Positions 1,529-61,180 of a stretch of 64,000 nt of DNA are shown here, one piece after another. The notes beneath the pieces were generated by a model. That model was not told the DNA's origin. It did no database searches and worked only from the letters and a program-made list of their open reading frames with translations. The DNA lies in the NCBI GenBank assembly GCA_027021385.1, contig JALUUL010000008.1, positions 87,469-151,468 of the forward strand. The letters run 5' to 3'. The first letter of the stretch is position 1, and the number at the start of each line of letters is the position of its first letter. The DNA comes from Planctomycetota bacterium (GTDB lineage Bacteria > Planctomycetota > UBA1135 > GCA-002748355). The position numbers and the translations under genes are program-made.

Positions 1529-2590
1529 ATGGAGACCCCGAACGACCGCGACCTCGCGCCCCAGGACATCGAAAAGGTCAAACGGCTCAAGGAAGCCTAC
1601 GGCAGGCTGAAAGACGAGATCTCCAAGGTGATCGTCGGTCAGGACGAAGTCCTCGAACAACTCTTCATCAGTCTTTTCTCCAAGGGCCACGCCCTTCTCG
1701 TCGGAGTCCCGGGGCTGGCCAAGACCCTGATGATTTCTTCCCTCGCGAAGGTCCTCGACCTCAGTTTCCACAGGATCCAGTTCACGCCGGATCTGATGCC
1801 CGCGGACATCACCGGCACCGAGGTCATCCAGGAGGACAAGGCAAGCGGGACCCGGGCCTTCAAATTCCTGAAGGGGCCGATCTTCGCCAACGTCATTCTC
1901 GCCGACGAGATCAACCGGACTCCGCCGAAGACCCAGGCCGCCCTCCTCGAATCCATGCAGGAGCACCAGGTCACCGTCGGGGGGGAACGCTATCCGCTCG
2001 AGGAGCCTTTCTTCGTCCTCGCGACACAGAACCCGATCGAGCAGGAAGGGACCTACCCCCTTCCCGAGGCCCAACTGGACCGCTTCATGTTCATGATCCA
2101 GGTCGGATACCCGTCCCTGGAGGAGGAACGGGAGATCCTTCGCCGGACGACCGAGACCCGGGAGGCCCGGGTCGAAACCGTCCTCCACGGGAACGAGATC
2201 CTGGAGTTGCAGGAAATCGTGCGCAGGGTCCCGATCGCCGATCAGGTCTTGAACTACGCGCTCCGCCTGACCCGTGCGACCCGCCTGAACGATCCCGCGG
2301 CCCCCTCCTTCATCAAGGAACTCCTCAGCTGGGGCGCCGGACCGAGAGCCAGCCAATACCTCGTGATCGCCGCGAAGGCCAAGGCCATCCTCGAGGGGCG
2401 CTTCCATGTCTCCGCCGAAGACATCCAGGCGGTCGTCCACCCCGTTCTCCGGCACAGGATCATCACGAACTTCAGCGCGGAGGCGGAAGGAATCCGCTCC
2501 GACGACGTCATCGACCGTCTCGTGGACTCCATCGACCCGAACGAAAGCGAGGCCCTCGCCGACGGAAAACTTCCCGGGATCCTGAACTGA
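1529..2590 (+). CDS. MoxR-class AAA+ ATPase
   Basis: Walker A GVPGLAKT, Walker [34 protein letters not shown] 1529 (METPNDRD) is preceded by AGGAAG. The tracked upstream start at 1475 is less likely. Confidence 0.9.
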
Positions 2591-2591
2591 G

Positions 2592-3518
2592 ATGGAAAAG
2601 GGATTCGGCACGGCGAGGCTCCGATCCGATTACCTCGATCCGAAGGTCCTGGACCGGATCGACAAGCTCGAACTCCGCGCGCGACTCGTAGTCGAGGGCT
2701 TCGTCTCGGGGATGCATCGGTCCCCCTACCGGGGTTTCTCCGTGGAGTTCGCCCAGCACCGGGAATACGTCCCCGGCGACGACATCCGCTTCGTGGACTG
2801 GAAGGTCTTCGCGAAGTCGGACCGGATCTACATCAAGGAGTTCGAGGAGGAGACCAACCTCAAGGCCCATGTCTTCGTCGACTCGAGCGAATCCATGGAA
2901 TACGGCGAGGAACGCTCGAAGTTCGACTACGCGGCGACTCTCGCGGCCTCCCTGGCCTTCCTCGTCCTCCGGCAAAGGGATTCCGTGGGTCTCGCGCTCT
3001 TCGACGAGACGACGGTTCGCCAGATCCCCCCCAGCAACAGCCGGGCGCAGCTCGGGGCTTTCGTCCAGGCCCTTTCCGAATCCCGGCCCGACGGAAAAAC
3101 GAGGGTCGGGAAGGTCCTCCATGAAGTCGCGGAGAGGATCGGGAACAAGGGGCTCATCATCATCATCTCCGACCTCTTCGACGAACCCGAAGGCGTGGAA
3201 TCGGGGATCCGGCACCTGAGGCACCGAGGGCATGATGTCCTCCTCTTCCACCTGATGGATCGAGACGAGGTCGATTTCCCCTTCCAGAGGATGACTCTCT
3301 TCCAGGGGATGGAGTCCATGCCGCGCCTTCTCGTCGACCCGAAGTCCCTCCGCGAGGCCTACCTCAAGGAAGTCCGGAAACACGAGGACAGGATCCGCAA
3401 GGCTTGCCTCTCGATGAAAGTGGACTACCAGAAGATCGTGACCGATCAGTTTCTGGATGTCGCCCTGGGGACCTATCTGGCGAAGCGGGCCTCCATGACA
3501 CGCGCGGCGAAACGATGA
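2592..3518 (+). CDS. DUF58 family protein (vWA-like, MoxR-associated)
   Basis: Signature RSPYRGFSVEFAQHREYVPGDDIRFVDWK and MIDAS-like VFVDSSESM. Start lies 2 nt after the moxR-like stop. Confidence 0.85.
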   Translation: MEKGFGTARLRSDYLDPKVLDRIDKLELRARLVVEGFVSGMHRSPYRGFSVEFAQHREYVPGDDIRFVDWKVFAKSDRIYIKEFEEETNLKAHVFVDSSESMEYGEERSKFDYAATLAASLAFLVLRQRDSVGLALFDETTVRQIPPSNSRAQLGAFVQALSESRPDGKTRVGKVLHEVAERIGNKGLIIIISDLFDEPEGVESGIRHLRHRGHDVLLFHLMDRDEVDFPFQRMTLFQGMESMPRLLVDPKSLREAYLKEVRKHEDRIRKACLSMKVDYQKIVTDQFLDVALGTYLAKRASMTRAAKR

Positions 3519-3531
3519 GAACGGGCGGGCC

Positions 3532-5829
3532 ATGAGCTTCCTTCATCCGGGTTTCCTGGCCCTGACGGCTCTCTTCTCCGTTCCCCTCCTCATCCATCTC
3601 CTGAACAGACGCCGGTATCAGGTCAGGGCCTGGGCGGCGATGGAATTCCTCCTCAGAGCCTTCAGGGAGAATCGCCGCCGCCTCCGGATGGAGAACCTCC
3701 TCCTCCTGCTTCTTCGTTGCCTCATCCCCGTCCTTCTGGCCCTCGCCATCGCACGGCCGAGGCTCGGGGGGGGCGGCGGGAACCTCGCGGACCACGGACT
3801 CGGAAAACACCACATCCTGGTCCTCGATCGTTCCTACAGCATGGGTGTGCTCGGGCCGGGAGGGATTCGCCCCTTCGACCGCGCCCTCCGGCAAGTTCGG
3901 GACCTCGCCGCAGAGGTTTCGCGCCAGAGGGGCAACCGATTGAGCCTCGTTCTCATGGACGGAAGGGCGACGGTCCCTTTGCGCGGGACTCTCGACCTTC
4001 CCGCGAGCCGGAAGGCCCTTCTCTCCCTAGAGGGGCCGAGTGACGGCCGGGCGGTCTACCTTCCGGTCCTGGACCAGGTACGCGAACTCGCCTCCGCCTT
4101 CGAGGAGCCCGCGGTCCTCCACTGGTGGTCCGATTTCCAGATCCGGGACCTGAGCGGGGCAACCCCCCCCTCCCCTTCCCCCACGGGGAAGCCGAAAAGC
4201 GGAAGCTCCGGACCCCTCACCGAAACGATCGTCGACGCCTACCGAGACCTTCTCGATGCCGGAGTGGAGGTCCACTTCCACCCGGTCCGCCCCACCGGAA
4301 AGGACCTGGAGAACGCCTCCGTCGCAAGCCTTTCCCTCGATCCGGGAAACGCCATCGTCGATTCGATCTGCAATCTCAGGGTCGTCCTCGCCTTCCGGGG
4401 GAGAACCCCTCGGGGAACCACGATCCGTCTCCTGATCGACGGCAAGGAACCCAGGACACGCTCCGTGACCCTGCGTCCCGGCCGTGAAGTCGAGGTCGAT
4501 TTCCCGATCCGTTTTCGAACCGAGGGGGATCACCTCCTCTCGGCGGTCCTGGAAGGAGACGCTCTCCCCGCGGACGATCGGCGGGATTTCGTCGTTCGGG
4601 CCCGGAAACGGATCCGAATCCTTCTCGTGAAGGGCGGAGAGGAGGAAGAGGATCCGATCCTCTCGAGGGCCTTTCTATTCGAGAAACTCTGCCGCCCGGA
4701 CCCCACCGCAAAGGATCCGGGGCTGCTCGTCTTCGACCCCGTCACGATCACCGAGGATCGTTTCCAAGCCGATCCTGGGATGATCGACCCCTTCGACGTC
4801 GTGGCCCTGATCGACGTCTCGGGCCCCCGGGAGCGCGCGGCGGTCCGTCTCGAACGATGGGTGAGATCGGGGGGCGGGCTCTTGATCGTTCCGGGACCGG
4901 ACAGCGTCGCCGATCTCTACAATCTGCGGCTCTTCGGAAAGAGGGGGGATCGAGGACCTCTTCCGCTCCGCCTCCTCTCGCCAAGGGGGGAAACGAGACG
5001 CCTCGAGGATCCAGACCCCGGAATTCGGCCGCGCATTCTCGATGTCGACTCGCCCTTGCTCTCGGACTTCACGGAGGGTGGGCTCGGAAAGATTCTCGAA
5101 GCAACCCCGATCAACAGGTATTGGGGGGTTTCCACCCTCGATGCTCCAGAAACCACATCTGTCCCGGTGGGGATCTTCGATCCCTCCGCCGCAAGCGAAC
5201 GGGAAGTCCTCCTGGCGGAGCGCTCCTATGGGCGGGGGCGCGCGATCCTGCTCACTTCGAATCTCAGTCGCAGGCCCGACCGCTGGAATCATCTCGATGA
5301 CCTCTGGATTTCCCTGCCGCTCATCCACTCGATCATGCACCGACTGGCCGCGAGGGATCCCGGGGAGCGCAATCTGACGGTCGGGGATCCCCTTTCGACC
5401 TGGTTCGCGAAAATCCCCTCGACCGTCTCGCTCCTCGACCCCGCGGGTGAGCGCAATCCTCTTCCTCTTCCGGATCCCGCCTCGGGGGACCCGTTCAAGG
5501 GCTGGATCCTGCCTCCCTACAAAGGGACATGGCGCTCCGGCCCCTATCGCCTGGAAATCCGGTGGGCCCGTCCTTCCCTCGACGAGGAGACGCGCCTTTT
5601 CGCGCTCCGTCCCGATACGAGGGAGGGGGATCTCTCCTACGTGGATGCGAAACTCCTCGCCCGGGAAATCCCAGGATCGCGGATTCTCGAAGGACTCACC
5701 CTCGGTGACCGGACCGAGACTTCGGCCGCCGGCAGCGGAGAACTTGGAAGGTTCCTCCTTCTCGCAACCTTGGGATTCGCAGTGATCGAAGCCCTGCTCG
5801 CCGGTCTGCTGGGCAGGAGGCGGCTTTGA
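3532..5829 (+). CDS. BatA-like membrane protein (N-terminal double-TM aerotolerance-regulator-type domain, vWA, GATase1/ThuA-like module)
   Basis: N-terminus FLHPGFLALTALFSVPLLIHLLNRRR. MIDAS-like ILVLDRSYSM. RILLVKGG...FDVVALIDV...GGGLLIVPG. C-terminal TM FLLLATLGFAVIEALLAGLL. Confidence 0.8.
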   Translation: MSFLHPGFLALTALFSVPLLIHLLNRRRYQVRAWAAMEFLLRAFRENRRRLRMENLLLLLLRCLIPVLLALAIARPRLGGGGGNLADHGLGKHHILVLDRSYSMGVLGPGGIRPFDRALRQVRDLAAEVSRQRGNRLSLVLMDGRATVPLRGTLDLPASRKALLSLEGPSDGRAVYLPVLDQVRELASAFEEPAVLHWWSDFQIRDLSGATPPSPSPTGKPKSGSSGPLTETIVDAYRDLLDAGVEVHFHPVRPTGKDLENASVASLSLDPGNAIVDSICNLRVVLAFRGRTPRGTTIRLLIDGKEPRTRSVTLRPGREVEVDFPIRFRTEGDHLLSAVLEGDALPADDRRDFVVRARKRIRILLVKGGEEEEDPILSRAFLFEKLCRPDPTAKDPGLLVFDPVTITEDRFQADPGMIDPFDVVALIDVSGPRERAAVRLERWVRSGGGLLIVPGPDSVADLYNLRLFGKRGDRGPLPLRLLSPRGETRRLEDPDPGIRPRILDVDSPLLSDFTEGGLGKILEATPINRYWGVSTLDAPETTSVPVGIFDPSAASEREVLLAERSYGRGRAILLTSNLSRRPDRWNHLDDLWISLPLIHSIMHRLAARDPGERNLTVGDPLSTWFAKIPSTVSLLDPAGERNPLPLPDPASGDPFKGWILPPYKGTWRSGPYRLEIRWARPSLDEETRLFALRPDTREGDLSYVDAKLLAREIPGSRILEGLTLGDRTETSAAGSGELGRFLLLATLGFAVIEALLAGLLGRRRL

Positions 5830-8276
5830 TGATTCCGCTGCCTCCGGCCTTCCTCTCCTTCCTCCCTCCGAGCCAGGCTCCGGCCCTGGAACTTAGCCGG
5901 CGATGGACCTGGCTCTCACCGATCCCCGCATGGGTCTTCGTTCTTCTGATCGTCCCCTCCCTCGCCGGGATCGCATGGTGGTCCTACCGGCGGGAAAGGG
6001 ATCTCCCCCGGAATCGGAAATCGGTCCTCGCCGTTCTGCGTTTTCTCGGCCTCCTCCTCCTCCTTGTCGCTTCGCTCCGACCCGCCCTGGAATCGACGAA
6101 ATCCGTCAGGATCCGAAACGAGATCCATTTCCTCCTCGACGACTCCGCTTCCATGAGCCGGCACGAGGTCTACGCCTCAAAGCGCAGGGACGAACTCCAG
6201 GCCGCCCTCGGAAAGACCGGCCTGGAGAACCTCTCTTCCTTTTCCCGCGCCGAACTCGCGGGCCTCCTCCTTTCGCCCGACTCACCGACTCTTCCCGGAG
6301 GAAGACTCGCCAGGGGCCTCGCCTCCAAGTTCGACCTCCGCTGGTTCCGCTTCTCGACTCATCCCTCCCCGATCACGGGTCCTGAGGACCTCGAGGCGAA
6401 GGGAAGGGAGACCCGGATCGGGGATTCCCTGGAACTCCATCTCTCGAGATCGATGGCCGAGGGAGGGAGGCTCGAATCCCTCATCCTGGTGACCGACGGC
6501 AGGAACACCGGAGGGCTTCCCCCCCTCGAGGCAGCCGCGAGATACAAATCCGCGGAAATCCCGATCCATGTCCTGGGTGTCGGAGATCCCGACAGCGACA
6601 AGAACCTGAGTCTTTCGGGGCCACCAGGCCCCAAGGAGGTTCTGGTCGGAGAGGAAGCGGAGTTCGAATGCACGATCGAAGCCTCGGGACTCGAGAGAAC
6701 GCAGGGGGAGCTGAACCTCGAGATCGCGGAATGGCCGTCGGATCGCCCCGCCCCCTCGAGGGGGGTGGTCTCCGAATCCGCCGGGATCACATGCCCCTCG
6801 AACGGCAAGGAACTTCGTGTCACTCTCCGGCATCGCTTCGAGAAACCGGGAGACTATCTCCTGACTTTCCGGGTTCCCCCCCTCCCCGGGGAATCCAACC
6901 CCGAGGACAATGTCGTCCGAAGGTACTTGCGGGTAGATCCCAACCGCATCCTCGTCCTCTACCTCGAAGACCGACCTCGGTGGGAATACCGCTATCTCGA
7001 GAGGGCCTTGAAGAGAGTCGACGAGAGCATCCGTTTCCAGGCCCTTCTCTTCGAAGGTTCTCCCTTCGCCCAGCAATCCTCGAAGGACCTTCCTCCTCTG
7101 ACCGCGCTGCCGAGGACACGCAAGGAACTTTTCCGCTACCACGTCGTTCTGCTCGGGGACGTCGACCCCCGTCATCTCGGGGACACCGAAGAGGAACGAT
7201 CCTCCTGGTTGGAACTGTTGAGGGATTTCGTCGAACATGGAGGCGGCTTGGGCCTCATCTCCGGCTCCACCCACATGCCGGAGAGTTACCGCGGCACGCT
7301 TCTCGAGGACCTCCTTCCCGTGGTTCTCGGAAGATTCGGAGAGGATGAGGAAATTCCACTCGCCTCCGGGAAACCCTTTTCCCCCGCCCTCGAGAATCCG
7401 GAACGCCCCCACCCGACCGTCCGCCTTTCCCGATTCCCCCTTGAAAACAAGCGCATCTGGGATTCCCGCTTGCCCCCTCTCTACTGGTACTATCCGGTAT
7501 TGCGGGCGAAGGCAGGGGCCACCGTCATTCTCAGGCATCCCCGTGACGGGAACCGATACGGGAAGCGAGTCTTGACGGCAATCGCGCCCTACCCCGAAGG
7601 ACAGGTCTGGTTCAGCGCGATCGACAGCACCTGGCGTTGGCGGAAATTGTACGGGGAGAAATACCAGGACAGGTATTGGCGGAATGTCGTCCGAACCCTG
7701 GCCGAGACCAAACTTCGAAGGAAGGACGACAGGATCGAACTCAGACTGAACCGGGAATCCGTGGTCCTCGGCTCGAGAGTCACCGTCTCCCTGAAACTCC
7801 TTGACGAGGATTACGCCCCCGTGATCGCCAAGGAAGCTCGAATCCATATCCGGAAGCCTGACAGGTCGATCGTCTCGAAGATCCTTCTTCCGGTCGAGGA
7901 TCGCCCCGGCCTGTTCGAGGGAGTGGTCCCCGCGGAAGCGCAGGGAATGTATTCCTTCCTGTTCTACAAGGACGGAGTCCCCTCCGGTCCACCCCGGGCC
8001 CGGAGGGATCTGACCGTCCTCCTCCCACGCAAGGAACTCGCACGGGTCGGCTTGGACGAGAGCGGGCTGAAGAAGCTTGCAAAGGCCTCGGGAGGGACCT
8101 ATCGGCCCCTCTCCCGTCTGGGAGAATTGCTACCCCTTCTCGCCGAGCAGGGCGGCGGCACCAAGATCCTCGAGAGGAAGGTCCGGGAGATCTGGGATTC
8201 GATCTGGATGTTCCTGCTCGTATTCGCCCTCTTCACGATCGAATGGATCCTCCGCAAGCGCTGGCGTCTCGTATGA
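5829..8276 (+). CDS. Membrane vWA protein with GATase1-like (DUF1355-type) module
   Basis: ATG 5829 (or TTG 5826) overlaps the upstream stop (TGATG). N-terminal TM segments. MIDAS-like FLLDDSASM. ILVLYLEDRPRWEYRYL...YHVVLLGDV...HGGGLGLISG. C-terminal TM IWMFLLVFALFTIEWIL. Confidence 0.75.
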   Translation: MIPLPPAFLSFLPPSQAPALELSRRWTWLSPIPAWVFVLLIVPSLAGIAWWSYRRERDLPRNRKSVLAVLRFLGLLLLLVASLRPALESTKSVRIRNEIHFLLDDSASMSRHEVYASKRRDELQAALGKTGLENLSSFSRAELAGLLLSPDSPTLPGGRLARGLASKFDLRWFRFSTHPSPITGPEDLEAKGRETRIGDSLELHLSRSMAEGGRLESLILVTDGRNTGGLPPLEAAARYKSAEIPIHVLGVGDPDSDKNLSLSGPPGPKEVLVGEEAEFECTIEASGLERTQGELNLEIAEWPSDRPAPSRGVVSESAGITCPSNGKELRVTLRHRFEKPGDYLLTFRVPPLPGESNPEDNVVRRYLRVDPNRILVLYLEDRPRWEYRYLERALKRVDESIRFQALLFEGSPFAQQSSKDLPPLTALPRTRKELFRYHVVLLGDVDPRHLGDTEEERSSWLELLRDFVEHGGGLGLISGSTHMPESYRGTLLEDLLPVVLGRFGEDEEIPLASGKPFSPALENPERPHPTVRLSRFPLENKRIWDSRLPPLYWYYPVLRAKAGATVILRHPRDGNRYGKRVLTAIAPYPEGQVWFSAIDSTWRWRKLYGEKYQDRYWRNVVRTLAETKLRRKDDRIELRLNRESVVLGSRVTVSLKLLDEDYAPVIAKEARIHIRKPDRSIVSKILLPVEDRPGLFEGVVPAEAQGMYSFLFYKDGVPSGPPRARRDLTVLLPRKELARVGLDESGLKKLAKASGGTYRPLSRLGELLPLLAEQGGGTKILERKVREIWDSIWMFLLVFALFTIEWILRKRWRLV

Positions 8277-11200
8277 TGCTCAGGTCCCAGGAACTCCGAT
8301 CCCCGGTCTTCCCCGGCTCCGGAAGCGGTGCCTGCTTCCCCTTTCTCGTCCTGGGCCTCCTGCTTCCCGCTTCTCCGTCTCCTTCCCAGAATCGTGCCCT
8401 TTTTTCGGTCGCCCAGGACGAAGGTCGATCCCGGCGATACGCGGAGGCCAAACGGCTCCTTGACCACGGGAAATACGCCTCGGCGATCGGCCTCCTCCGC
8501 GAAGTCCTGGAGAGTTCCTCTTCCGCCGTGACCCGTTCCCCGGATGGGGGGTATCTCGGCCTGCGCTACCTCGCCAGGGAGACTCTGGCCCGTCTTCCCG
8601 GCGAAGCCGCCTCCATCTACGAGGACCTTGCGAAAGGAACTGCGAAACTCCTTCTTCCCGATGCCCTGATTGCTCCCGAAGGCGGTTCCTTCCAACGGCT
8701 CAGGGAGAGCTATCCGGGGACCCGGGCCGCGGAGACCGCCCTTGCGGCCGGGGGCCTGCGATACCTGGAGCAAGGCCGGGTCGTCCGAGCCTGGCACCTT
8801 TTCTCCTCGCTCTCTTCCCTGTATCGATCCCCGTCTGGAGAGTCGGGGAGGCTGATCTGCAGGAGGCTCCTGAGCCTTCCTCTTCCATCGAGGTCCTTAG
8901 GCCCGGACATGGAACTCCCCTTCGCCGGGAGAAACCGCCCGTTACGAAGTGTTCTGCGGGCCCTCTCATCGACATCCCCCCTCCCGCTCCCGGCTTCTGG
9001 AGTCCTCGGCGGAGGGATCGAAGGGTCCCACCCTTCCCCGGCCCCTCTCGAACCGGTCACAACCGCCTGGAGCAGGAAGATCCCGACCCTGACCTTCTTC
9101 AACTGGAACATTCTCCCGGTAACCGACGGAAAACGTGTCTACCTCAACACGGGAACGGGGATTCACTGCCTCGATCTGTTGACCGGACGTACCTGCTGGT
9201 CATTTCAGGGACCGCTTCACGAAGAACCCTCCTCCGGGGATTTCCTCGCGAGCATCTCCCCCCACCAGATCCAGGTCGTGGGTTTCGGAAAAGGGCTCGT
9301 CGTCGCATCCATCCAGGTTCCCAAGATCCCCGACATCGCGAAGGAGAACACCGAGTTCAACGGGATCCCCGTCATGAGAAGGCTGCCCGTGCGGCGGTTG
9401 TTCGCCTTCGAGGCCGATTCCGGGCGTCTCATCTGGTCGCATTGGGATCCGGAAAAGGACCCTCCCAAGGGCTTCGAGGATGCCGTCATGGACGTGAGCG
9501 GCCCGCCGCTCGTCGTGGGCGACACGGTCTACGTGCCGACCCACAAACAACTGGGGACGATCGCGTTCTATGTCTCCGCCTTCGATCTCGAATCCGGGTC
9601 GCTCCGATGGAAGACCCTGATCTGCAGTTCCCAGGTCGAAGTCAATATGTTCGGGAACGCCTACTGGGAGCATGCCGCTTCCCCCCTGGCCTGCTCCGAC
9701 GGTTTCCTTTTCGGAACGACCAATCTCGGTCTCGCATTCTCTCTTTCCCTGGAAGACGGCGCGATCCGCTGGCTCCGGCCCTACGAGATCATCCCCCTCC
9801 CCCCCGCGCAGATGATTCCACAGGCCAGGGAGGTGTACTGGGGAAACAACCCCCCGATCGCTCACGGGGAGACGGTAGTCATGACTCCCCTGGACAGCGT
9901 GAATGCACTCTGTTTCGACAGGGGAACAGGGAAGATTCTTTGGGAAATGCCCTTCCTCGTTCCCGATTCCCAGCTCGGACGCTCCTATCCGATGAAATGG
10001 ATGCTCGGGATCCGGGAAAGCCGCCTCTGGTTCTCCGGAGACGGCCTTGCCTCCTTGGCCTTAGAAGGAACGAGGCGTTTCCAGCGCAGGGCGAGGCTCG
10101 TCTCCTCCGCATCCCGCCTCGGCATCCGACAGATCGAGGATCGATCCAGGATGCCGAGGGGCATCCTCACATCGAGGGGGGCTCTCCTGCCGACCGCCAC
10201 AGTGGGGATCCTCAGTCTCGATGTGGAAGGGAAGATCAGACCGGGATCCCCGTCCCTCCGGAATCAGACGGGGAACCTTTGCTCCTCCCGGGGAATCCTG
10301 GTCACCGTTCAACCCCTCTCTCAATCCCACCGCATCCTCGTCAAGGGGCTGTATTCCTTCAAGGCCCTGATCGACCGGGCTCGCAACAAGGTGCGCAAAC
10401 ACCCCGGCTCCCCGGAGTTCCATCTCGAACTCGCCGAGCTGATCGCCTCCCGGCCCGACACTTCCCCGGCGATCGAACAACAGGCCCTGGCCGGCTATCG
10501 AAAGGCCCTTCTCCTTTGGAAACGTAGAGGTACGAGCTCTACCCGCCCGAACTTCCAGCGTGCGATTCTAGGCCTCTTCCGGCTCGAACTCAGGATCGGA
10601 AGGAGACTCCAGAGGATCGATCTCCGCGCCGCATCCGGCCATCTTTGGGAGGCCTACGAGGCTTCGAGGAAGCTTACCCCGGACTCTTCGAAGCTGGAGG
10701 AAATCCTGGACCTCCACGAACTCCTTCTCCGTTCCTCTCTGTCCGCGGAACGAAAGGAGGAAATCCTTCGATCTCTCCGGGATCGATTCCCGGACACGAT
10801 CCATGACTTCCAGGGTTTCGGCCCGATTCCCGCGGGTTTGTATGCCGCCTGGTTGCGGATGAAAGGAATCCCTGAAACGAGATCCGCGGCCAGGGGGCTC
10901 GCCACCCTCCTCCAGGAGATCCTGGAAAAATGGGGAGGGATCACGATGCGCACGGGCAAGGTTCGCGACCTCGTCCTCGTGAGGCTTCAAGACCTCATCC
11001 GGAAGTTCGGCCCGGAGGTGTACGCACACATCGAACGGAGGGCGCGAAAGCTTCTCGATGCTTCGAAGGATGATCCGGCGGCCCTCCGCTCCATCCTCCG
11101 TTCCTTCCCCCTGACGAAGACCGCGAAGGAAGCCCTGCTCTCCCTCGCCTCCCTTTCGGCGAGGAACGGGGATTTCGCCGCGGTTCTCGATGCTTACGGA

Positions 11201-12751: not shown

Positions 12752-12753
12752 AC

Positions 12754-13899: not shown

Positions 13900-13900
13900 C

Positions 13901-16243
13901 GTGACCTCACCCCCCTTCGATCCCCGGCCTCCCCGATTGACTCCGATTCTCGACGGTTGGAGGCGCAGGATCCGTCTCCATCTCGCCCTCCACGGAGCGG
14001 GTTGGTTTCTCGGGGGGGCAACCTCCATTCTCCTCCTTCACTTCCTTCTCGATCGGACCCTAGACCTTCCTTCCGCCTTCCGGATCCTTCTTCTTACGGG
14101 AATCCTCCTCCTCTTCGCTCTCCTCGCACTCCGGGGACTCGTCCATCCCCTGCGCAGACCCTTCGCCCCGAGAGACCTCGCCCTCCTGATCGAAAAGCGG
14201 TATCCAGAGTTGAAGCAGGTCCTCGTGACCGCGGTCGAAGGAGAAGGAACCCACAGGCCGCCGGGTTCCGCCCTTCTCTGGAACCGGGTCCTCGAGGAAG
14301 GCGCGGAGCGATTGGCCCACATCGACCTCGGGAATTTGATTTCCAGACGGCCTCTCCTTCAGGCCTGGGGGGTCGCCCTGCTCACGATCCTCTCCTTTTC
14401 GGCCGTCATGTACGGGAATCCCCCCGTTTCCCGGGTATGGCTCCATCGTCTCTTCGGAGGAGCGGATTCGTATCCCCGCAGGACCTTCCTCAAGATCGCC
14501 GTCCCGCCCGGCGCCGGCAACTACAAGGTCTTTTCGGTCCCCGGCGGAGGCGGGAGAATCCTGCTCGCCAAGGGGACGGACCTTCCTGTCCAGGTCGAGG
14601 TCGAGGGCGAAGTCCCCGACCGCGTCCACCTCGAGATCCTCACGGCCTCTTCGACGGAATCGGTCGAAATGCCCAGGCGTGGCATGCGCAGGTTCCGCAC
14701 GCTTTTCCCCCATGTCCTGCATGGTTTCGAGTTCCGGGCTCTTGGAGGCGACGACCCGGGCACCCCCCGGTTCCGTGTCGAGGTCCTCGAAGCCCCGGCG
14801 GCCCTTGGCCTCCGGACTCGGACCCTCCCTCCGGCATACGCCGAACTACCGCCGAAGGACCAGGAGGGGGGCCTGGTCGAGGCTCTTCCCGGAAGTCGGG
14901 TGAGGGTCCTGTTCCGTGTTTCCGAACCCGTTTCCGAAGCGGTCCTCCACTTCGAGGAATCCGGAAAGGAGATCGTCGCCACCCTCCTCGGGCCCGGGAA
15001 ACACGGGGATTACCCCTTTCCCCCGGGGGATCGCGCTCCGGACGGACTCTACTATGGAGCCGAATTCGCAATGCCGGCGAAACCGGACCGCTACCGAATC
15101 CGACTCGTCAGCCGTTCCGGACTCCGGGAACGATTCCCGGAAAATCACGCCCTGATTCCCCTGCGCGATCGTCCGCCTCGAATCCGCCTCTTCTCGCCCG
15201 GCGCCGGAATGGACGCCTTCCTTCCCGGAATCCGTCTTCCGCTCAGGTTCTCGGTGACCGACGACTACGGAGTCCGCACCGTCTCCTGGGCCGCAGGACT
15301 CGGAGGGAAGGTCGAAGGAAACGAACGCCGCTTCGACCTTCCCGGAACCCGTCCCTCCGCGCGCAAACGGTTCGGCCTTCTCGTCTTCCTCCGAATGGGC
15401 CGTTTCCTCCCCGAAGGGACCCGCAAACCGCGGGAGGGGGACCGGATCACGATCCGGCTCTCGGCACGCGATTCGAAGGGCAAGGAAGGGCAGGCGAGCC
15501 CTCCGGTCGAGTTCCGGTTGGATCTCGTGAACCGGGAGGAGCTCCTCCGCCGACTTCAGGACCGGATGCGATCCATCCGGAATCTCGTCGAGCGTTCCCT
15601 GGAGATCACGAAGGAACAACACGGGAAGACCTCCCTACTCCAGGGGGAACTCGCCGAGGGGGGGGCGGGTCTCCATTCCCGGTCGGCCCTGGCTTCCCTC
15701 GAGGCGGGGATCGAACGGACGGCGACGAACCTGATCCGGATGCGGGACGCCCTGGCCCTCGTCACCGAATCCCACCTGGTCAACGGACTCGATCGGTCTC
15801 CGGGGATGAAGGATCTCCTCGAACGCTTCGAGGACTGGTATCGGAACCATCCGACCTCCCCCCCCGCCGATCCTTCCCTCTACGCGAGGATCCAGGAGGA
15901 TCGCAGGGAAGGGAAGATCGGCAATCTGGATCTTCTGGGCCGCCTTGGCGACATGTTCGAAATCGCCCACACCCTGGCCACGACGGAACTCGCCGTTCAA
16001 CGCAGGGCCTGGAACGCCGCAAGATCCTCCGACTCCCCGAAGGAACGCCTCCCCCCCCTGGAGGTTCTCCTCGAGTCCCAGGTCAGGACGGAGGAGGGGT
16101 TGTCCCACCTGCTCGTCATGCTCGAAGATTGGAACGACTACCAGGACCTTGTGCGGATGACCCGTCGTCTTCGCGACGCGCAGAGAGCGCTCACCGAAAG
16201 GATCAAGTCCTCGAAACGAGGTCCCGAAAAAAACGGGAAATGA
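13901..16243 (+). CDS. Two-TM membrane protein with large extracytoplasmic region (DUF4175-like architecture; tentative)
   Basis: Start lies 2 nt after the upstream stop. TM helices GAGWFLGGATSILLLHFLL and ILLLTGILLLFALLALRGL, then about 700 aa with a helical E/R-rich C-terminus. The alternative frame 13957..16287 is R/P/S junk. Confidence 0.65.
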   Translation: MTSPPFDPRPPRLTPILDGWRRRIRLHLALHGAGWFLGGATSILLLHFLLDRTLDLPSAFRILLLTGILLLFALLALRGLVHPLRRPFAPRDLALLIEKRYPELKQVLVTAVEGEGTHRPPGSALLWNRVLEEGAERLAHIDLGNLISRRPLLQAWGVALLTILSFSAVMYGNPPVSRVWLHRLFGGADSYPRRTFLKIAVPPGAGNYKVFSVPGGGGRILLAKGTDLPVQVEVEGEVPDRVHLEILTASSTESVEMPRRGMRRFRTLFPHVLHGFEFRALGGDDPGTPRFRVEVLEAPAALGLRTRTLPPAYAELPPKDQEGGLVEALPGSRVRVLFRVSEPVSEAVLHFEESGKEIVATLLGPGKHGDYPFPPGDRAPDGLYYGAEFAMPAKPDRYRIRLVSRSGLRERFPENHALIPLRDRPPRIRLFSPGAGMDAFLPGIRLPLRFSVTDDYGVRTVSWAAGLGGKVEGNERRFDLPGTRPSARKRFGLLVFLRMGRFLPEGTRKPREGDRITIRLSARDSKGKEGQASPPVEFRLDLVNREELLRRLQDRMRSIRNLVERSLEITKEQHGKTSLLQGELAEGGAGLHSRSALASLEAGIERTATNLIRMRDALALVTESHLVNGLDRSPGMKDLLERFEDWYRNHPTSPPADPSLYARIQEDRREGKIGNLDLLGRLGDMFEIAHTLATTELAVQRRAWNAARSSDSPKERLPPLEVLLESQVRTEEGLSHLLVMLEDWNDYQDLVRMTRRLRDAQRALTERIKSSKRGPEKNGK

Positions 16244-16253
16244 GGAGTCCTCG

Positions 16254-19040
16254 ATGCTCGGAATCCTGCTCTTCCCCCTGCTCTTGATCCCGGCTTCCGG
16301 GATCTTGGGTCCCGCGGAGTTCGCCCCTTCCCCTCAGGGCCAGAACGCCGCCCACGAACAGGAAGCCCTCGTGCGGCGCGCGGAACGTCTCCGCACCCAA
16401 ATGGAGCGGCTGCTCGACCGGTACGCGAAGGAAGGACGAAAGGACCGCATCGTCCTGCTCCGGGAGGCGAAGAAGTATTTCGAATCCAGCAAGCTTCTCC
16501 GGAAGTTGAACGAGGCCTCCCTCGCCCTTGAGGGCGGACAACGCCAGCGAGCCTTGCAGACCCAGAGGGAAGTCCTCGCCGATTTCGAGAAGCTCATCGC
16601 GATCCTTCTGGATCGTCGGTCAGTCGAAGACCTGGAAAAGGATTCCCGCGAGGTCGAACGCCGACTCGCCGAACTCCGGGCGATGAAGGCCCGGCAGAAC
16701 GAACTGAAACAGCGTCTTTCCCGGATCCGGCAGGCCGCCGCCACCGAAGCCGAGAAGGCCCTGACCGAGGGTCTTCGGAAGCTCTCGATCGAACAGCTCG
16801 GACTCGCAAGGGAATCCGCGGCGCGGGCTTCTTCCTCCCTCCAGGCCCTTCGGAAACGAATCGGATCCTTGGGAAGGATCCTGGAGGAAGCCAAGGAGCT
16901 CGGGAAGCATCTCGAGACCCCGCCGCCTCCCGGCGCGAGGACCGATTCGATCACCTCCCTGTCCAACGAGGCCGAGACCCTCCTGCAACGACTCGAAGAC
17001 CTGAAGGCCTTGACGAAAGTCGGGGATTTCCTCGCCGGTTCCTCCAAGGAGCGGGATCGAACGAAGCCCCGCCTGGACCCGGAGGAAACGAGGAACCTTC
17101 TCCGGGTCCTGAAGAAGGGCGAATCGGTTCTCCGAAAGCTCCAGGGAGATCGATCCGGAGGGATTCTCGAGGAGGCGCGGAAAGGTCTAGCCGATCTACG
17201 ACTCGATCTCGCCAAGGGGAGCCCGATGAGGGAGGGGGGCGAGGCTGCGATCCGGAGCCTCGAACGCGCGATCCGGGAAGCCGGCAGGTCTTCCCGGAAG
17301 GAAGCGAAGAGGCTCTCGGACAAGGCGCGCGATCTCTCGGCGACCTTTGCGAAGGGTTCCCGGGAATCCCGCGCTCTCAAACATGCGGACGAGGAACTGA
17401 AGAAGGCCTCCGAGCCCTCCCCGGAAGGAGAGCGCTCCTCCCTCGAACGCTCCGAATCCGCGGTCCAGCGGGCCCTGCGTCACCTTTACGAGGCCCGTGT
17501 CGCAAGCGGAAGGAAGAACACCCCTCTTTCCGCGAGAGCTTCCGGCCTCGCCAAGCGCATCGAGGAGGAACTTCGTTCCCTGGAGCGGAATCCCTCCCCT
17601 CCGCCAAGCGGCGTCTCCGAGACCCTGAGGAAGGCCGCGTCCCACCTGAAGAAAGCGGCGGGGGATTCCCGGGCCCTTCCCGCGGATCTCGCAAACGGAA
17701 TCCAGGCCATCGAAAACGCCAGGAAACGGTTGCAGGACGAAGCTTCTTCCCAAGCTTCCCGGAATGCGGAGCGGGCTGCGGAGGCGGCCTCCGGCCAGAA
17801 AAACCTTCGAAAACGAACCGAACAGACCCTTCGGGCCCTCGCCCGGGCATCCAAGGAAGGGCGAATCAATCCGAACCAGGAACGGGCGGTCCGGGATCGG
17901 GTCACGAAAGCCCTGAAAGCTATGAGGAACGCGGAGAAGAATCTCGCGGAGGGCTTCATGGGGGGAGCCGCGAAGGCGCAGACCCGGGCTTCGAATGAAC
18001 TGGAACGCGCGGCCCGCGCCCTGGAGAGGGAACGGAGCCTGCGACCGGACCAGAAGCGTGAATGGAACCGTCTCGCCGAAGCCCAGGAACGTCTCGCACG
18101 GGAGATCCTGGAACTCGCGCGTCGGATCGACCCCAAGAAGAACCCCGAAGCGCGCAGGGCCCTCGATCGAGCCAGGTCCGCCGCCTCCAAGGCGAACCAG
18201 GAGATGCGGGAGGACAGGCCCCGGGAGGCGGAACAGGCCCAGGCGGAGGCCGAGCGAAAGCTCGATGAGGCGGAGAAGCACCTGAAGAAGGAGCGGGATC
18301 GTTATTGGCGCCTCCGCCAGGAGGAACTCCTGTTCCGGATCAAGGATGAGGTCGCCTCCCTGATCCTCAAGCAAAGGGAGATCAATCGGAAAACTCTGGA
18401 TGTCTCCGCGGAACGAGGAGACAGTGTGCGGATTCCCCGAAGGCTCCGTTCCAGGCTTCGCGCTCTCAGTCGAGCCGAGAACGAACTCGCCGGGAGAGCC
18501 CGTTTCCTGGCGGACAACCTCGAAAAGGAGCGGACGATCGTCTTCACCTACGTCCTTCGTTCCATCGTGGAGGACCTGGAACTTGTCGGCAAGTTCCTCG
18601 GAAGACGCAGGCCCCAGTTGGATCGTTTCGTCCTGGGTCTCCAGCGGGAGATCCTCGAGAGGATGAAAATGATGAAGGCCAGCCTCGAGGAGGAGATTCG
18701 ACGCTCCAAGGAAGAACGGAAGGATCCGCAGCGTCCAAAAGCGCCGGAGAACACGAACGAGGGAGATTCCAAACCGAGGCTCGTCCCCGATGACGCCGAA
18801 CTCAAGATGCTCAAGCGATTGGAGGAGGACACGAAGGCGAGAATCCAGGTTCTCCTGAGCTTGATCGAATCCTCCCCGTCCCTGGAACTCGATCTCCGGA
18901 ACAGCATCGAACGCCTCGCCTTGCGGCACGCGAAGGTCTCCGACCTCTTCCGGCGCTTTCTCGAATCCCGCGGAATCCCGGGATCCGAGAGCGGAGGAGA
19001 GAAGGACGAGGATTCGGCGAAGGAGAAAAAGAGAAAATGA
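16254..19040 (+). CDS. Secreted 928-aa E/R/K/A-rich coiled-coil protein
   Basis: Signal-like MLGILLFPLLLIPASGILGPAEF. Long heptad-like charged helices throughout. Antisense ORFs are S/R-rich junk. Start lies 11 nt after the upstream stop. Confidence 0.65.
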   Translation: MLGILLFPLLLIPASGILGPAEFAPSPQGQNAAHEQEALVRRAERLRTQMERLLDRYAKEGRKDRIVLLREAKKYFESSKLLRKLNEASLALEGGQRQRALQTQREVLADFEKLIAILLDRRSVEDLEKDSREVERRLAELRAMKARQNELKQRLSRIRQAAATEAEKALTEGLRKLSIEQLGLARESAARASSSLQALRKRIGSLGRILEEAKELGKHLETPPPPGARTDSITSLSNEAETLLQRLEDLKALTKVGDFLAGSSKERDRTKPRLDPEETRNLLRVLKKGESVLRKLQGDRSGGILEEARKGLADLRLDLAKGSPMREGGEAAIRSLERAIREAGRSSRKEAKRLSDKARDLSATFAKGSRESRALKHADEELKKASEPSPEGERSSLERSESAVQRALRHLYEARVASGRKNTPLSARASGLAKRIEEELRSLERNPSPPPSGVSETLRKAASHLKKAAGDSRALPADLANGIQAIENARKRLQDEASSQASRNAERAAEAASGQKNLRKRTEQTLRALARASKEGRINPNQERAVRDRVTKALKAMRNAEKNLAEGFMGGAAKAQTRASNELERAARALERERSLRPDQKREWNRLAEAQERLAREILELARRIDPKKNPEARRALDRARSAASKANQEMREDRPREAEQAQAEAERKLDEAEKHLKKERDRYWRLRQEELLFRIKDEVASLILKQREINRKTLDVSAERGDSVRIPRRLRSRLRALSRAENELAGRARFLADNLEKERTIVFTYVLRSIVEDLELVGKFLGRRRPQLDRFVLGLQREILERMKMMKASLEEEIRRSKEERKDPQRPKAPENTNEGDSKPRLVPDDAELKMLKRLEEDTKARIQVLLSLIESSPSLELDLRNSIERLALRHAKVSDLFRRFLESRGIPGSESGGEKDEDSAKEKKRK

Positions 19041-19738
19041 TGAAGTTCGGACTCCCTTCGACTCTCGGCTTCACTCCCCTTCTTCTGACCGCCTTCCTCC
19101 TCGGATTCCCATCCGGTGCCCGGGGGCAGGAGGATGGAAGGGTCAAGAAGATCCTCGATCGAATCACCTCGGAAATGAAGAGGATCGACGAACTCCTTCA
19201 GAAGGCCACGGCCACGGCGTCGAGGTCCGGAAGGAATTCCGGATCCGCGAAGGATTCCTCCCGAATCGGGATCTCCGAGACGAAGAAGATCCTCGAATCG
19301 ACGACGAAAAGCAATGAACGGGTCATCCGTTACATCGACGAACTCCTGAAGATAGCTAGCCGTAAAAAAAACCGGGGTTCCTCCTGCGAAAATCCCGGCG
19401 GGAGCAAGGACTCCTCCTCCTCGCCCTCGAAGAAACGTCCTTCGGATCGCCCGGACGACAGGGAGGGCGTATCGCCCCGTAATATGAGCAAGAAGGAGGG
19501 GGATCCCCGTTCCGCTGCGACCGACCCGAAAACCGCGAAACAACGGAAGCAAGGGGTTCGAAAACCCGAGGATCCCACCGGTCCGGCTTCGAAACGCAAA
19601 GGCGCGGGACGGTGGGGAGACCTTCCCGCCTACCTGAAGTTCCTGTTCCAGCGCGGCGGAGCCCCAAAAATCCCTTCGAAATACCGCCGTTTCGCCGAGG
19701 AGTTCTTCAAGAAGGTGGACCGCGCGAAAAAACGCTGA
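19037..19738 (+). CDS. Small secreted K/S-rich protein (233 aa)
   Basis: ATGATG start overlaps the upstream stop (ATGA). Signal peptide MMKFGLPSTLGFTPLLLTAFLLGFPSGARGQ. C-terminal WGDLPAYLKFLFQRGG...YRRFAEEFFKKV. Locally lower GC. Confidence 0.55.
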   Translation: MMKFGLPSTLGFTPLLLTAFLLGFPSGARGQEDGRVKKILDRITSEMKRIDELLQKATATASRSGRNSGSAKDSSRIGISETKKILESTTKSNERVIRYIDELLKIASRKKNRGSSCENPGGSKDSSSSPSKKRPSDRPDDREGVSPRNMSKKEGDPRSAATDPKTAKQRKQGVRKPEDPTGPASKRKGAGRWGDLPAYLKFLFQRGGAPKIPSKYRRFAEEFFKKVDRAKKR

Positions 19739-20859
19739 AATCGATCGCCGTGCTCGCGTTCCTTCTTCTCCCCCCCCTCCTCCTCGGCGGTCCCCGTCCG
19801 CCACAGCAGACCGATCGCCTTCCCCGAACCCAGGGAGCAAGCTCCCTCGATCTTCCCCCGAAGCTCTGGAAGGAGGTCGAGACCCTCGCCGGCGACGCCG
19901 CAAACCGTCTGGCCGCATTGCAGGACCGGAGGGGCGCCTTCCGGCTCGAGCGGGCACGATTGCCGGCCCCGATCGCCGTGACCTCGCTCTGCACCCTCGC
20001 CCTCCTGGGAATGGGGGAAATCCCGGGAAGAACCCCGAAGGGTTCCCGGATCGAACTCGCTCTGCGTTACCTCCTCGACAACCAGATCCGGGACGGAGGC
20101 CCGAAGGACGGCTACTTCTCCGATCCCGCCGACAGGTACAGCAAAATGCACGGGCATGGGTTCGCGACCCTCGCCCTCACCCAGGCCCTCGGTCAAATCC
20201 CTGGAGGAGGGAGCCGCCTCGTCAGCTCCGCGGAACTCCGATCTTCGATCCGGGCCGCGATCCGGCTGATCCAACGCTCCCAGGACAAGAGCGGGGGTTG
20301 GACCTACGAGCCGATTCCCGTCGGGCACGAGGGCTCGATCACGATCTGCATGGTTCAGGCCCTGAGAGCCGCTCACAACATCGGTTTCGCGGTCGACGAT
20401 CAGGTTGTCCACCGCGCCATCCGCTACGTGGAGCAGAGCCAGAAACCCGACGGCAGCTTCCGTTACCAGCTTGGAAGCGATCGAAGTTCGGTCGCCCTGA
20501 CAGCCGCGGCCCTCGCGACCCTGGATGCCGGAGGTGGATACGACTCCCCATCCCTCGCCAAAGGCCTCGCCTACCTTTGCGCTCCCCGTCCTTCCTTCCT
20601 CCGACCCGGTCGGATCCCGGAAGGAGAAGGAAGGTTCCCCTTCTATGAACGGCTCTACGTCGGAGAAGCCCTCTTCTTCCACAAGAACCTCGATCGCTTT
20701 TCCCGATGGTACGAATCCCTCGTCGTAGATCTTTCCGCTACCCGGGACAGCCAACGGGGGAGCTGGCATTCGCCGCGTTACGGCGAGGCCTACGCGACGG
20801 CCATGAACCTCCTCGTCCTGGTTCTCCCGTTCCAGTACCTTCCGATCCACCAGCGCTAG
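19735..20859 (+). CDS. Secreted prenyltransferase/squalene-oxidase-repeat protein, copy 2 (start uncertain)
   Basis: QW-type repeats LQDRRGAF, QIRDGGPKDGYF, SQDKSGGWTYE, SQKPDGSFRYQ, and C-terminal LVLVLPFQYLPI parallel to copy 1 (LILAVPFRYLPI). The signal-like KSIAVLAFLLLPPLLLGG starts only at CTG 19735 (overlapping the stop as CTGA) or GTG 19750. The tracked ATG at 19612 lies inside the upstream gene. Confidence 0.7.
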   Translation: MKSIAVLAFLLLPPLLLGGPRPPQQTDRLPRTQGASSLDLPPKLWKEVETLAGDAANRLAALQDRRGAFRLERARLPAPIAVTSLCTLALLGMGEIPGRTPKGSRIELALRYLLDNQIRDGGPKDGYFSDPADRYSKMHGHGFATLALTQALGQIPGGGSRLVSSAELRSSIRAAIRLIQRSQDKSGGWTYEPIPVGHEGSITICMVQALRAAHNIGFAVDDQVVHRAIRYVEQSQKPDGSFRYQLGSDRSSVALTAAALATLDAGGGYDSPSLAKGLAYLCAPRPSFLRPGRIPEGEGRFPFYERLYVGEALFFHKNLDRFSRWYESLVVDLSATRDSQRGSWHSPRYGEAYATAMNLLVLVLPFQYLPIHQR

Positions 20860-22630: not shown

Positions 22631-22659
22631 GCCCCCATCATGCAGACCGGGGAACGGAA

Positions 22660-25800: not shown

Positions 25801-25914
25801 GTTCCGTTCCCGGGAGGTGATCGTGCATTCTAACGGATCATGGATCCGTGGGTCCGATGAACCCGGGAGGCGGCGGCCGCCCGATCCGAAGGGAAATCGG
25901 GGCTTCGATCCGGT

Positions 25915-26868: not shown

Positions 26869-26896
26869 GAACGCCCTCCCTCCCCGGATCTCCGTC

Positions 26897-55076: not shown

Positions 55077-55278
55077 GAGTCGGGAGGGGTGTTGACGGCC
55101 CCCCCGGGAGGGGGCGGAGGGCGGGAAAGCGCCCGGATCGCGCCGTCAGAAAAGCGAAGCATTCTACCCCTGGAACCGGGGAACGGACCAGCACCGCCTC
55201 GAGGGGGCGCCGGACCGTCCCGGGCCATCTTTCCGGCTTCCCCGAATGGGCCTTGACAAGGGGACGAAGGGGACCGAC

Positions 55279-61095
<5,817 letters not shown>

Positions 61096-61142
61096 CGCCC
61101 CTCCATAGGGCCCTCCGCCGCTCCGGGTCAACGCCGGGCTTG

Positions 61143-61175
61143 CGATTCGGAGCGGGAAACCCGGATTCCGAATCG
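61143..61175 (-). other. Palindromic stem-loop between the IMPase gene and uvrA
   Basis: CGATTCGGA (61143-51) pairs with TCCGAATCG (61167-75). Inner CGGG-AAA-CCCG. It begins 6 nt downstream of the IMPase stop (61181). Confidence 0.4.
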
Positions 61176-61180
61176 GCTCT

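Follow-up and report, generated by a model that had tools for sequence, protein, structure and literature searches.

The locus described here raises the question whether a long series of closely packed genes, which begins as a MoxR module of the cell envelope and continues with large membrane and secreted proteins, represents a single unit and, if so, to which of the known bacterial systems it is related. It lies in the genome of a Planctomycetota bacterium (assembly GCA_027021385.1, contig JALUUL010000008.1, positions 87,469 to 151,468); this whole stretch of 64,000 nucleotides (nt) is referred to below as the window, and all positions are counted from its first letter. Between positions 1529 and 20859, the + strand carries long open reading frames (ORFs) in series with no break, as seen on inspection of all the junctions; the ten genes, all on this strand, are called g1 to g10. 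On balance, they probably constitute a single operon, conserved within an uncultured lineage of Planctomycetota and composed of nine invariant genes and a variable last gene, their co-transcription being predicted from the sequence. Judged by its protein domains, the array is an enlarged form of the widespread MoxR (MRP-type)/DUF58/BatA_N-vWA/GATase1-like/DUF4175 cell-envelope module, which also takes in the Bat operon of Bacteroides and, going by its gene composition, the RL3499-RL3502 operon of Rhizobium; a propeller protein (g5) and a toroid protein (g6) are the true additions to it.

The initial annotation of this DNA had counted eleven coupled genes in the array; nine junctions, however, delimit ten genes. 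When the sequence of each junction was read, eight of the nine were found exactly as they had been listed: the gaps amount to +1 nt between g1 and g2 (2590/2592), +13 nt between g2 and g3 (3518/3532), +2 nt between g5 and g6 (12751/12754), +1 nt between g6 and g7 (13899/13901; the g7 start is GTG) and +10 nt between g7 and g8 (16243/16254; GAGGAG is found 7 nt upstream of the start), and the adjacent genes overlap by 1 nt at g3/g4 (TGATG, 5827-5831) and by 4 nt at both g4/g5 (ATGA at 8273) and g8/g9 (ATGA at 19037). At the last junction, given as CTGA at 19735, the proposed start is a CTG, a non-canonical codon; canonical codons in the same frame are GTG at 19612, implying a 127-nt overlap with g9, and GTG at 19750, 12 nt past the g9 stop, so that the start of g10 is uncertain among these three positions. 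The compactness of the array was borne out; a consensus scan placed no terminator-like site at any of its junctions and, with 17 sites versus 21.2 expected from shuffled sequences, revealed no enrichment of such sites. Rfam and tRNA scans of the window gave no matches.

That the arrangement is not an accident of one genome emerges from its comparison with homologous loci (L001-L050), all of them on contigs of metagenome-assembled genomes (MAGs) or metagenomes. The same gene order was met in the surroundings of g7 homologues on three contigs; a scan of species-representative genomes with an alignment of g5 yielded ten loci, all in Planctomycetota MAGs, and in tblastn with the ten window proteins, every contig of sufficient length kept the order g1-g10, with the complete set in L009, L010, L012, and L015. 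A metagenome scan with a narrow alignment added 31 further loci, and all those long enough display g3-g4-g5-g6-g7-g8-g9 in order. Altogether, the order g1-g9 is kept in about 35 distinct Planctomycetota contigs at 26-68% identity, and the stop/start junctions among the called genes of six homologous loci are mostly of -4 or -1 nt; the same order, with such overlaps, in other organisms places the array beyond chance. Three relatives of g6 are found on contigs of 2.3-4.1 Mb which carry the same cluster between different flanking genes (FtsW/RodA and a penicillin-binding protein (PBP) in two, HXXSHH/PSD genes in one), which argues against synteny due to close relatedness alone. Free variation of the downstream genes next to the core, the outcome which according to the initial annotation would speak against a single assembly, is not observed for g5-g9, including in the loci with different flanks, but it is observed for g10.

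The first four genes constitute the core, and the claim that it is of the Bat type, with MoxR, DUF58, and vWA proteins, is upheld, as are the calls of all the recognisable domains of the array (MoxR, DUF58, BatA_N plus vWA, vWA plus GATase1-like, double propeller, and two toroids) by Pfam and NCBIfam. The product of g1 (1529..2590; 353 amino acids, aa) is a MoxR-type AAA+ ATPase, matched by AAA_3 with 215 bits and by AAA_lid_2 with 67 bits, which carries a Walker A (GVPGLAKT) and a Walker B (VILADE) motif and is 73-80% identical across related loci; as in MRP-type MoxR operons, this AAA_3 ATPase stands first and the DUF58 gene starts 1 nt past its stop. The latter, g2 (2592..3518), encodes a 308-aa DUF58 vWA protein (DUF58 164 bits, VWA_2 36 bits). 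Both proteins are predicted to be cytoplasmic, neither having a signal peptide-like N-terminus, and g2 is also devoid of transmembrane helices. The strings VDSSES, LDRSYS, and LDDSAS, pointed out earlier as metal ion-dependent adhesion sites (MIDAS), are indeed present in g2, g3, and g4, respectively (DSSES at residue 97, DRSYS at residue 99, and DDSAS at residue 104).

The two larger core proteins are predicted membrane proteins. g3 (3532..5829; 765 aa) combines a BatA_N double-transmembrane region (BatA_N 62 bits, TIGR02226 74 bits) with a vWA domain, whose VWA_2 match (18.5 bits, E 0.003) is under the 27-bit cut-off and whose MIDAS is intact; its hydrophobic segments span residues 3-21, 56-74, and 742-760, with an arginine-rich loop between the first two and the last as a C-terminal anchor. 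g4 (5829..8276; 815 aa) contains two transmembrane segments, a vWA domain (VWA 31.5 bits), a GATase1-like region (residues 428-625), and a C-terminal transmembrane anchor. According to hydropathy, g3 and g4 share a common layout, in which two N-terminal transmembrane segments enclose the arginine-rich loop, a large middle part follows, and a C-terminal transmembrane segment precedes basic residues; this layout places the bulk of both proteins, as a prediction, in the periplasm. An active class I glutamine amidotransferase was rejected for g4: its only cysteines are residues 281 and 322, and the nucleophile is thus absent from 428-625.

How far, then, does the array coincide with a described system? 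The best known relative is the Bat (aerotolerance) operon of Bacteroides fragilis, with homologues in Leptospira, Borrelia, Riemerella, and Francisella (Tang et al. 1999; PMC5700661, PMC11834572). The likeness consists in an MRP-type MoxR gene placed first, followed by DUF58 and by BatA-type membrane proteins with a double-transmembrane region and a MIDAS-bearing vWA domain, as well as in the envelope location. Unlike BatA and BatB, which are only ~330 aa long, g3 and g4 measure 765-815 aa, with GATase1-like and beta-rich regions as extra parts and an anchor at the C-terminus, and the array possesses, in addition, a DUF4175-type protein, a coiled coil, a double propeller, and toroids. No Pfam match at E<=0.01 to BatD, to the TPR of BatC/BatE, or to SH3 was detected in the ten proteins; since BatC, BatD, and BatE are absent, the array, as far as its domains tell, falls outside the Bat operons proper.

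Nearer comparators than the Bacteroides BatA-E set are the RL3499-RL3502-type operon of Rhizobium leguminosarum, composed of four genes for MoxR, DUF58, and two large membrane proteins, like g1-g4, and the neighbourhoods of DUF4175 genes. This operon is reportedly the 'broadly conserved operon' of Vanderlinde et al. 2011 (J Bacteriol 193:2684), and is said to have a role in the envelope and in morphology. Its likeness to g1-g4 is one of gene composition, RL3501 and RL3502 being candidate orthologues of g3 and g4, and it is not known to include genes for a propeller, a toroid, or a coiled coil, in contrast to the array. Of its genes, RL3499 and RL3500 were flagged as growth-impairing on TY medium in a transposon sequencing (Tn-seq) study.

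The assignment to DUF4175 concerns g7 (13901..16243), a protein of 780 aa which, like g8 and g9, gave no Pfam match at E<=0.01, the PF13779 (DUF4175) model included. Its residues 86-481 nevertheless align with PF13779 proteins of Acidobacteriota (BLASTP E 3e-16), and a profile of the g7 family finds two DUF4175 proteins (P0008 and P0007) with E-values of 1.3e-28 and 9.6e-28; on these alignments, g7 is homologous to DUF4175, as a divergent, short membrane protein of this type. An exhaustive HMMER search of 1.84e9 representatives assigned to the g7 family 12,405 proteins at E<=1e-3 and 1,553 at E<=1e-30, of which the best 150 are mostly full-length at ~750-820 aa, as is g7 itself; the PF13779 model matches 4 of 32 sampled members. 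The exhaustive search was needed, word-indexed searches with g7 or its profile giving 8-11 matches and missing known orthologues. The protein had been described as having two transmembrane segments; three membrane helices are predicted instead (~30-53, 58-85, and 149-172). In the AlphaFold2 (AF2) model (mean predicted local distance difference test, pLDDT, 78.8), a helical cytoplasmic loop (90-139, within 86-148), the most conserved part of the family, is followed by a region of tandem Ig/FnIII-like beta-sandwiches (195-542) and by a high-confidence helical bundle (545-772).

In Acidobacteriota, DUF4175 is a regular companion of MoxR, DUF58, and BatA. Two loci of this phylum (L005 and L006) contain, in order, genes for GATase1_like, (C13-like), TPR/Peptidase_MA_2, DUF4159, MoxR, DUF58, BatA/vWA, and DUF4175 proteins; MoxR is 55-57% and DUF58 40-41% identical to the window proteins, BatA_N-vWA and GATase1-like proteins are common to both, and the DUF4175 gene stands directly after BatA, the N-terminal ~400 residues of its product aligning with g7, with which it shares an architecture of N-terminal transmembrane helices and beta-rich parts. 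Of the 'six extra genes' which the initial annotation had placed outside the known module, g7 consequently has to be withdrawn, whereas g5 and g6 do qualify as additions. The difference lies in the accessory genes (a TPR-metallopeptidase, a legumain-like protein, and DUF4159 in Acidobacteriota versus propeller and toroids here) and in the DUF4175 part, which is one protein of 1156-1175 aa in Acidobacteriota versus three genes here (780, 928, and 233 aa). Upstream of MoxR, the segments L005:1200-5568 and L006:1311-5982 encode the TPR plus Peptidase_MA_2 and DUF4159 proteins, with a weak legumain-like (C13) match in L006, which suggests that the Acidobacteriota version carries a proteolytic accessory set. 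We know of no publication on this MoxR-DUF4175 neighbourhood of Acidobacteriota; variation of accessory genes is already known for MoxR operons of this class.

Since the long DUF4175 proteins (1156-1175 aa) exceed g7 (780 aa) in length, their C-terminal parts were compared with g8 and g9. The former (16254..19040), secreted and 928 aa long, is of helical/coiled-coil type; its C-terminal domain (~680-905) is conserved, and the heptad periodicity of the protein exceeds the shuffle threshold in 24 of 124 windows versus 6.2 expected; the latter (19037..19738) is a small, basic, secreted protein of 233 aa with a net charge of +28 and a conserved C-terminal motif (WG-LP-YL...P-KYRR-EEF). The extreme C-terminus of g9, (I/V)PxKYRRxxEEFxRxVDR, resembles the extreme C-termini of both long DUF4175 proteins (VPTAYRERVQEYFRRL, VPEGFRSMVEEYFRSL); the similarity extends over a 21-column motif only and is not significant (hhalign E 0.09). 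For g8, the comparison with the coiled-coil part of the long proteins gave an hhalign E-value of 2.5e-4. These likenesses are no more than suggestive of g8 and g9 being the detached coiled coil and C-terminal tail of a long DUF4175 protein.

A compacted version of the cluster in another lineage (L020:2619-16785, near dnaA) bears on the same point. It consists, in order, of genes for MoxR, DUF58, a 1637-aa, a 1211-aa, and a 251-aa protein, an orthologue of g6, and a 435-aa protein, with no propeller. The 1637-aa protein is a fusion of g3 and g4. In the 1211-aa protein, the N-terminal half can be aligned with g7, and the last ~200 residues are collinear with the C-terminal domain of g8, including LVPxxAELKxL; this latter match is weak, collinear, and terminal (BLAST 4e-4, hhalign 1.7e-3), and the protein looks like a fusion of g7 and g8. 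The g9-like 251-aa protein ends in PVYRELTEAYYRRL. Such fusions are a classical indicator of joint action by products that are elsewhere separate. Identity between g6 and its orthologue in this locus is 40%; a toroid of this type thus accompanies the module outside the clade of the window, whereas the propeller protein g5 does not.

The propeller protein itself, g5 (8273..12751), is a secreted protein of 1492 aa, composed of an N-terminal helical/TPR-like part (a sub-threshold hint of TPR_16), a PQQ/BamB-like propeller, a helical middle part, and a second propeller; PQQ_2 scores above its cut-off twice (52 bits at ~375-500 and 28.5 bits at ~1125-1295). Sequence searches of the PDB returned weak fold-level matches only, those of g5 including BamB. 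Like g6, g8, g9, and g10, it has a signal-peptide-like N-terminus. It occurs in every related Planctomycetota locus at 26-41% identity, and is absent from L020, L005, and L006.

The joint presence of MoxR, vWA proteins, and a beta-propeller protein in one neighbourhood is shared with the ternary conflict systems, which are characterised by a vWA component with a fused propeller and by variable effector domains (Kaur, Burroughs, Iyer, Aravind 2020, PMC7159879), and the Pfam model bpMoxR matches g1 above cut-off, with 40 bits against 27. The same protein, however, fits AAA_3 far better (215 bits), and the propeller here is a separate, secreted PQQ-type protein devoid of a vWA domain; no effector domains were found by Pfam, and the gene set is invariant rather than diversifying. 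A conflict or defence role is thus highly improbable, and was rejected on account of the unfused propeller and of the lack of detected effectors.

The patchy distribution of g5 and g6 invites another explanation, namely, that the MoxR core g1-g4 merely adjoins an unrelated cluster of secreted proteins, g5-g10. Both genes are missing from the Acidobacteriota clusters and g5 is missing from L020, which implies that the core can exist without them; but g4 and g5 overlap by the 4 nt of ATGA in the window, their junction is tight in most homologous loci, g7, which stands between the 'extra' genes, is a core-type DUF4175 component, the order never varies among the loci, those with different flanks included, and in L020 the toroid is still attached to the MoxR cluster. 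Two separate adjacent units are, on this evidence, very improbable.

The second addition, g6 (12754..13899; 381 aa), is a secreted, single-domain (alpha/alpha)6 toroid, and g10 (19612..20859, start uncertain; ~374 aa) is a second secreted toroid, a g6 paralogue ~30% identical to it. SQHop_cyclase_C scores above cut-off in both (38.7 bits in g6, 27.4 bits in g10), with three QW-like motifs in g6 and one in g10. The AF2 model of g6 (pLDDT 88.6, predicted template modelling score 0.87) is a single (alpha/alpha)6 toroid, whose best Foldseek matches, with template modelling (TM) scores of ~0.6, are AprG, small myxobacterial proteins resembling squalene-hopene cyclase (SHC), the type II cyclase MstE, drimenyl-diphosphate synthase, and sugar epimerases/GH76. 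Its relatives number 2116 at E<=1e-5, and the best 120 of these 2116 are all at least 50% identical. An alignment of 61 g6 sequences contains ~70 invariant columns, including H87, H141, E150, R182, Y183, D191, S193, C197, Q198, R203, H307, and several tyrosines; g10 keeps a core subset of these residues and differs at others (e.g., H87P, D191E, Q198M, with H307 variable). The g6 toroid would probably serve to bind a ligand or to catalyse a reaction. Both toroids, and all their orthologues (L001-L050), end exactly in YLPI[FHY]QR (window 13879-13896 and 20839-20856), an invariant terminus which could be a docking or sorting signal.

The possibility that the toroids are periplasmic enzymes acting on an isoprenoid or a sugar, that the operon makes or remodels an envelope lipid or glycan, and that MoxR and the vWA proteins are assembly chaperones rather than part of a scaffold is the most serious alternative to the scaffold proposed below, even if we regard it as unlikely. 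It would account for g6 being the best conserved non-core protein (52-67% identity across loci versus 26-41% for g5), for about 20 invariant polar or aromatic residues (among them H87, H141, E150, D191, C197, H307, and several tyrosines), and for the nature of the closest folds, which are enzymes (AprG, type II terpene cyclases, drimenyl-diphosphate synthase, sugar epimerases/GH76); it also agrees with the general view of MoxR proteins as maturation chaperones of dedicated complexes (PMC3893208). A motif search, however, shows DxDD (D.DD) to be absent from both g6 and g10, a TM score of ~0.6 denotes similarity at fold level only, no other gene for lipid or glycan biosynthesis was recognised by Pfam in the cluster, and the invariant residues could equally line a binding pocket. 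As for the narrower proposal of DxDD class II terpene cyclases, it was rejected, given the lack of this motif and the presence of a single domain of 374-381 aa instead of the two-domain beta-gamma cyclase architecture.

A different function for the same fold would be found in a periplasmic trap akin to alpha-2-macroglobulin and complement, with the beta-sandwiches of g7 as macroglobulin (MG) domains and the toroids as thioester-containing (TED) domains. Complement C3/C4/C5 do appear among the many Ig-like fold matches of g7, and TED_complement matches g6 weakly (20.4 bits, E 3e-4). The latter match, however, is below the cut-off of 22; the CGEQ thioester motif was found neither in g6, which has no C..Q, nor in g10, where the C-x-x-Q spacing alone is present (CMVQ, in a different sequence context); and the Foldseek matches of g7 are generic tandem Ig/FnIII ones only, titin and FnIII ranking equal to or better than complement. 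The thioester/TED reading of the toroids was rejected on the missing CGEQ and the sub-cut-off match, and a trap of this kind is hardly to be expected.

A last comparison concerns the way in which the core might work. In the operon of MoxR, vWA (DUF58), and the transglutaminase-like YebA, the vWA protein has been proposed to be a co-chaperone recruiting substrates at a membrane protein (Zhang and Aravind 2012, PMC3495828); the array resembles it in the pair of MoxR and vWA proteins proposed to act at a membrane protein, and differs from it in that no transglutaminase-like or other peptidase domain was detected by Pfam in the ten proteins. For the extended arrangement as a whole, no describing paper was found, in a literature of which the subscription journals were thinly covered, so that absence is not proof; the DUF families of the cluster are not mentioned in a 2026 preprint on DUF interactions.

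Taken together, these properties make it reasonably probable that the array encodes a MoxR-driven periplasmic scaffold, an enlarged MoxR module. In the mechanism proposed, the localisation, the domains, and the intact MIDAS of the parts are predicted from sequence, their co-inheritance, tight coupling, and fusions come from the comparison of loci, and how they are linked is inferred; the stoichiometric, envelope-spanning assembly put forward in the initial annotation is likewise a putative one. In the cytoplasm, the MoxR AAA+ ATPase g1, with the DUF58 vWA protein g2 of the same compartment as adaptor, would act on short, conserved cytoplasmic loops in each of the three membrane proteins (in g3 that of BatA_N, in g7 that at 86-148, and the one in g4), and would thereby control the assembly or the conformation of their large periplasmic parts. 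These parts would comprise the MIDAS vWA domains, the GATase1-like domain (non-catalytic, because it has no cysteine), the Ig-like array, and the helical bundle, and would form, with the secreted coiled coil g8 and the tail g9, a periplasmic scaffold, g7, g8, and g9 together resembling one long DUF4175 protein. The scaffold may carry the double propeller g5 and the toroid g6, plus g10 in the subclade of the window. A role in envelope integrity or morphogenesis is likely by analogy only, above all with the mutant phenotypes of related operons, the analogies being the literature on the Bat operon, the title of Vanderlinde et al. 2011, the Tn-seq flags of RL3499 and RL3500, and the idea of vWA proteins as co-chaperones.

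Several points weigh against this proposal. The GATase1_like match of g4 (19-21 bits) is below the Pfam cut-off; the topology of the array proteins is derived from hydropathy, positive-inside loops, and AF2 only; and the hhalign probabilities by which g8 and g9 are related to DUF4175 are 43% (g8 with the coiled-coil part of the long proteins), 15%, and <1%, in a comparison where coiled-coil composition can inflate scores. All the organisms carrying the extended cluster are MAGs. Finally, the phenotypes of Bat-type operons differ between bacteria, ranging over aerotolerance, envelope shape, stress, and virulence (PMC5700661, PMC11834572).

The interest of the proposal lies in the fact that few bacterial gene clusters lacking a known mechanism are as widespread as the MRP-type MoxR operons (Bat, RL3499-RL3502, and relatives), and that the variant described here is informative, as its components are spread over nine invariant genes, a long DUF4175 protein is apparently split into secreted pieces, and partners are fused in another lineage; the split genes and the fusions make testable predictions of which parts touch. 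Two strongly conserved periplasmic modules are newly tied to the system, namely, the BamB-like double propeller and the toroid, which has a single domain and a conserved pocket, and either could provide a first biochemical handle on the MoxR envelope modules. The g7-type family, moreover, comprises more than 12,000 clusters at 50% identity and is barely covered by Pfam. A bolder version, which we consider decidedly unlikely, would see in the array an ATP-driven trans-envelope machine of a large uncultured Planctomycetota clade, in which a MoxR/DUF58 motor acts via three membrane proteins on a DUF4175-derived coiled-coil stalk, which places an active toroid enzyme and the BamB-like double propeller at the outer envelope; if true, it would give the Bat/MoxR module a definite biochemical task in the biogenesis of the envelope.

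The 3' end of the cluster is its variable part. Homologues of g9 are found in nearly all related loci and are absent from L019; g10 is found only in the subclade of the window, its position being occupied in L017-L019 by an unrelated, mutually homologous secreted protein of ~415 aa and in L038 by another toroid of the g6 type. Many loci have no recognisable + strand gene past g9, and the + strand ORFs found there in several metagenome loci were rejected as genes of the cluster, being antisense artefacts of high G+C or unrelated genes. In two loci (L017:18906-21173 and L019:17896-21158), the cluster is followed by convergent genes for FtsW/RodA and a PBP-type transpeptidase, an adjacency which possibly hints at a link to cell-wall growth, or may be a coincidence.

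Upstream of the array, g0 (13..1185, + strand) encodes a secreted, Tyr/Gly-rich protein of 390 aa with no Pfam match, separated from g1 by a 343-nt gap containing a G+C-rich hairpin (1213-1235). Homologues of g0 lie upstream of MoxR in L008:3-2776, L010:11-1081, and L015:87-2712, in some cases as a tandem of two or three. Over the C-terminal ~80 residues, g0 weakly matches the profile of the terminal ~415-aa family of L017-L019 (hhalign probability 55%, E 1.2e-4); g0 may be a loosely attached, uncoupled eleventh component.

Among the other genes of the window, those immediately downstream of the array (20930-29110, - strand) encode an Amidohydro_3 protein, whose ORF is extended at the N-terminus to an implausible length, a protein of 1046 aa with a CCP_MauG-like haem-binding match, an NTP_transferase, and a protein with FG-GAP repeats; in L001, L003, and L004, too, some of these genes follow the cluster. 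Two adjacent ORFs of 1122 and 1010 aa (55246-61698, + strand) have no Pfam match at E<=1e-4, and a histidine kinase (40710-42581, - strand; HisKA plus HATPase_c) displays a weak Arf/small-GTPase-like match in its N-terminal part.

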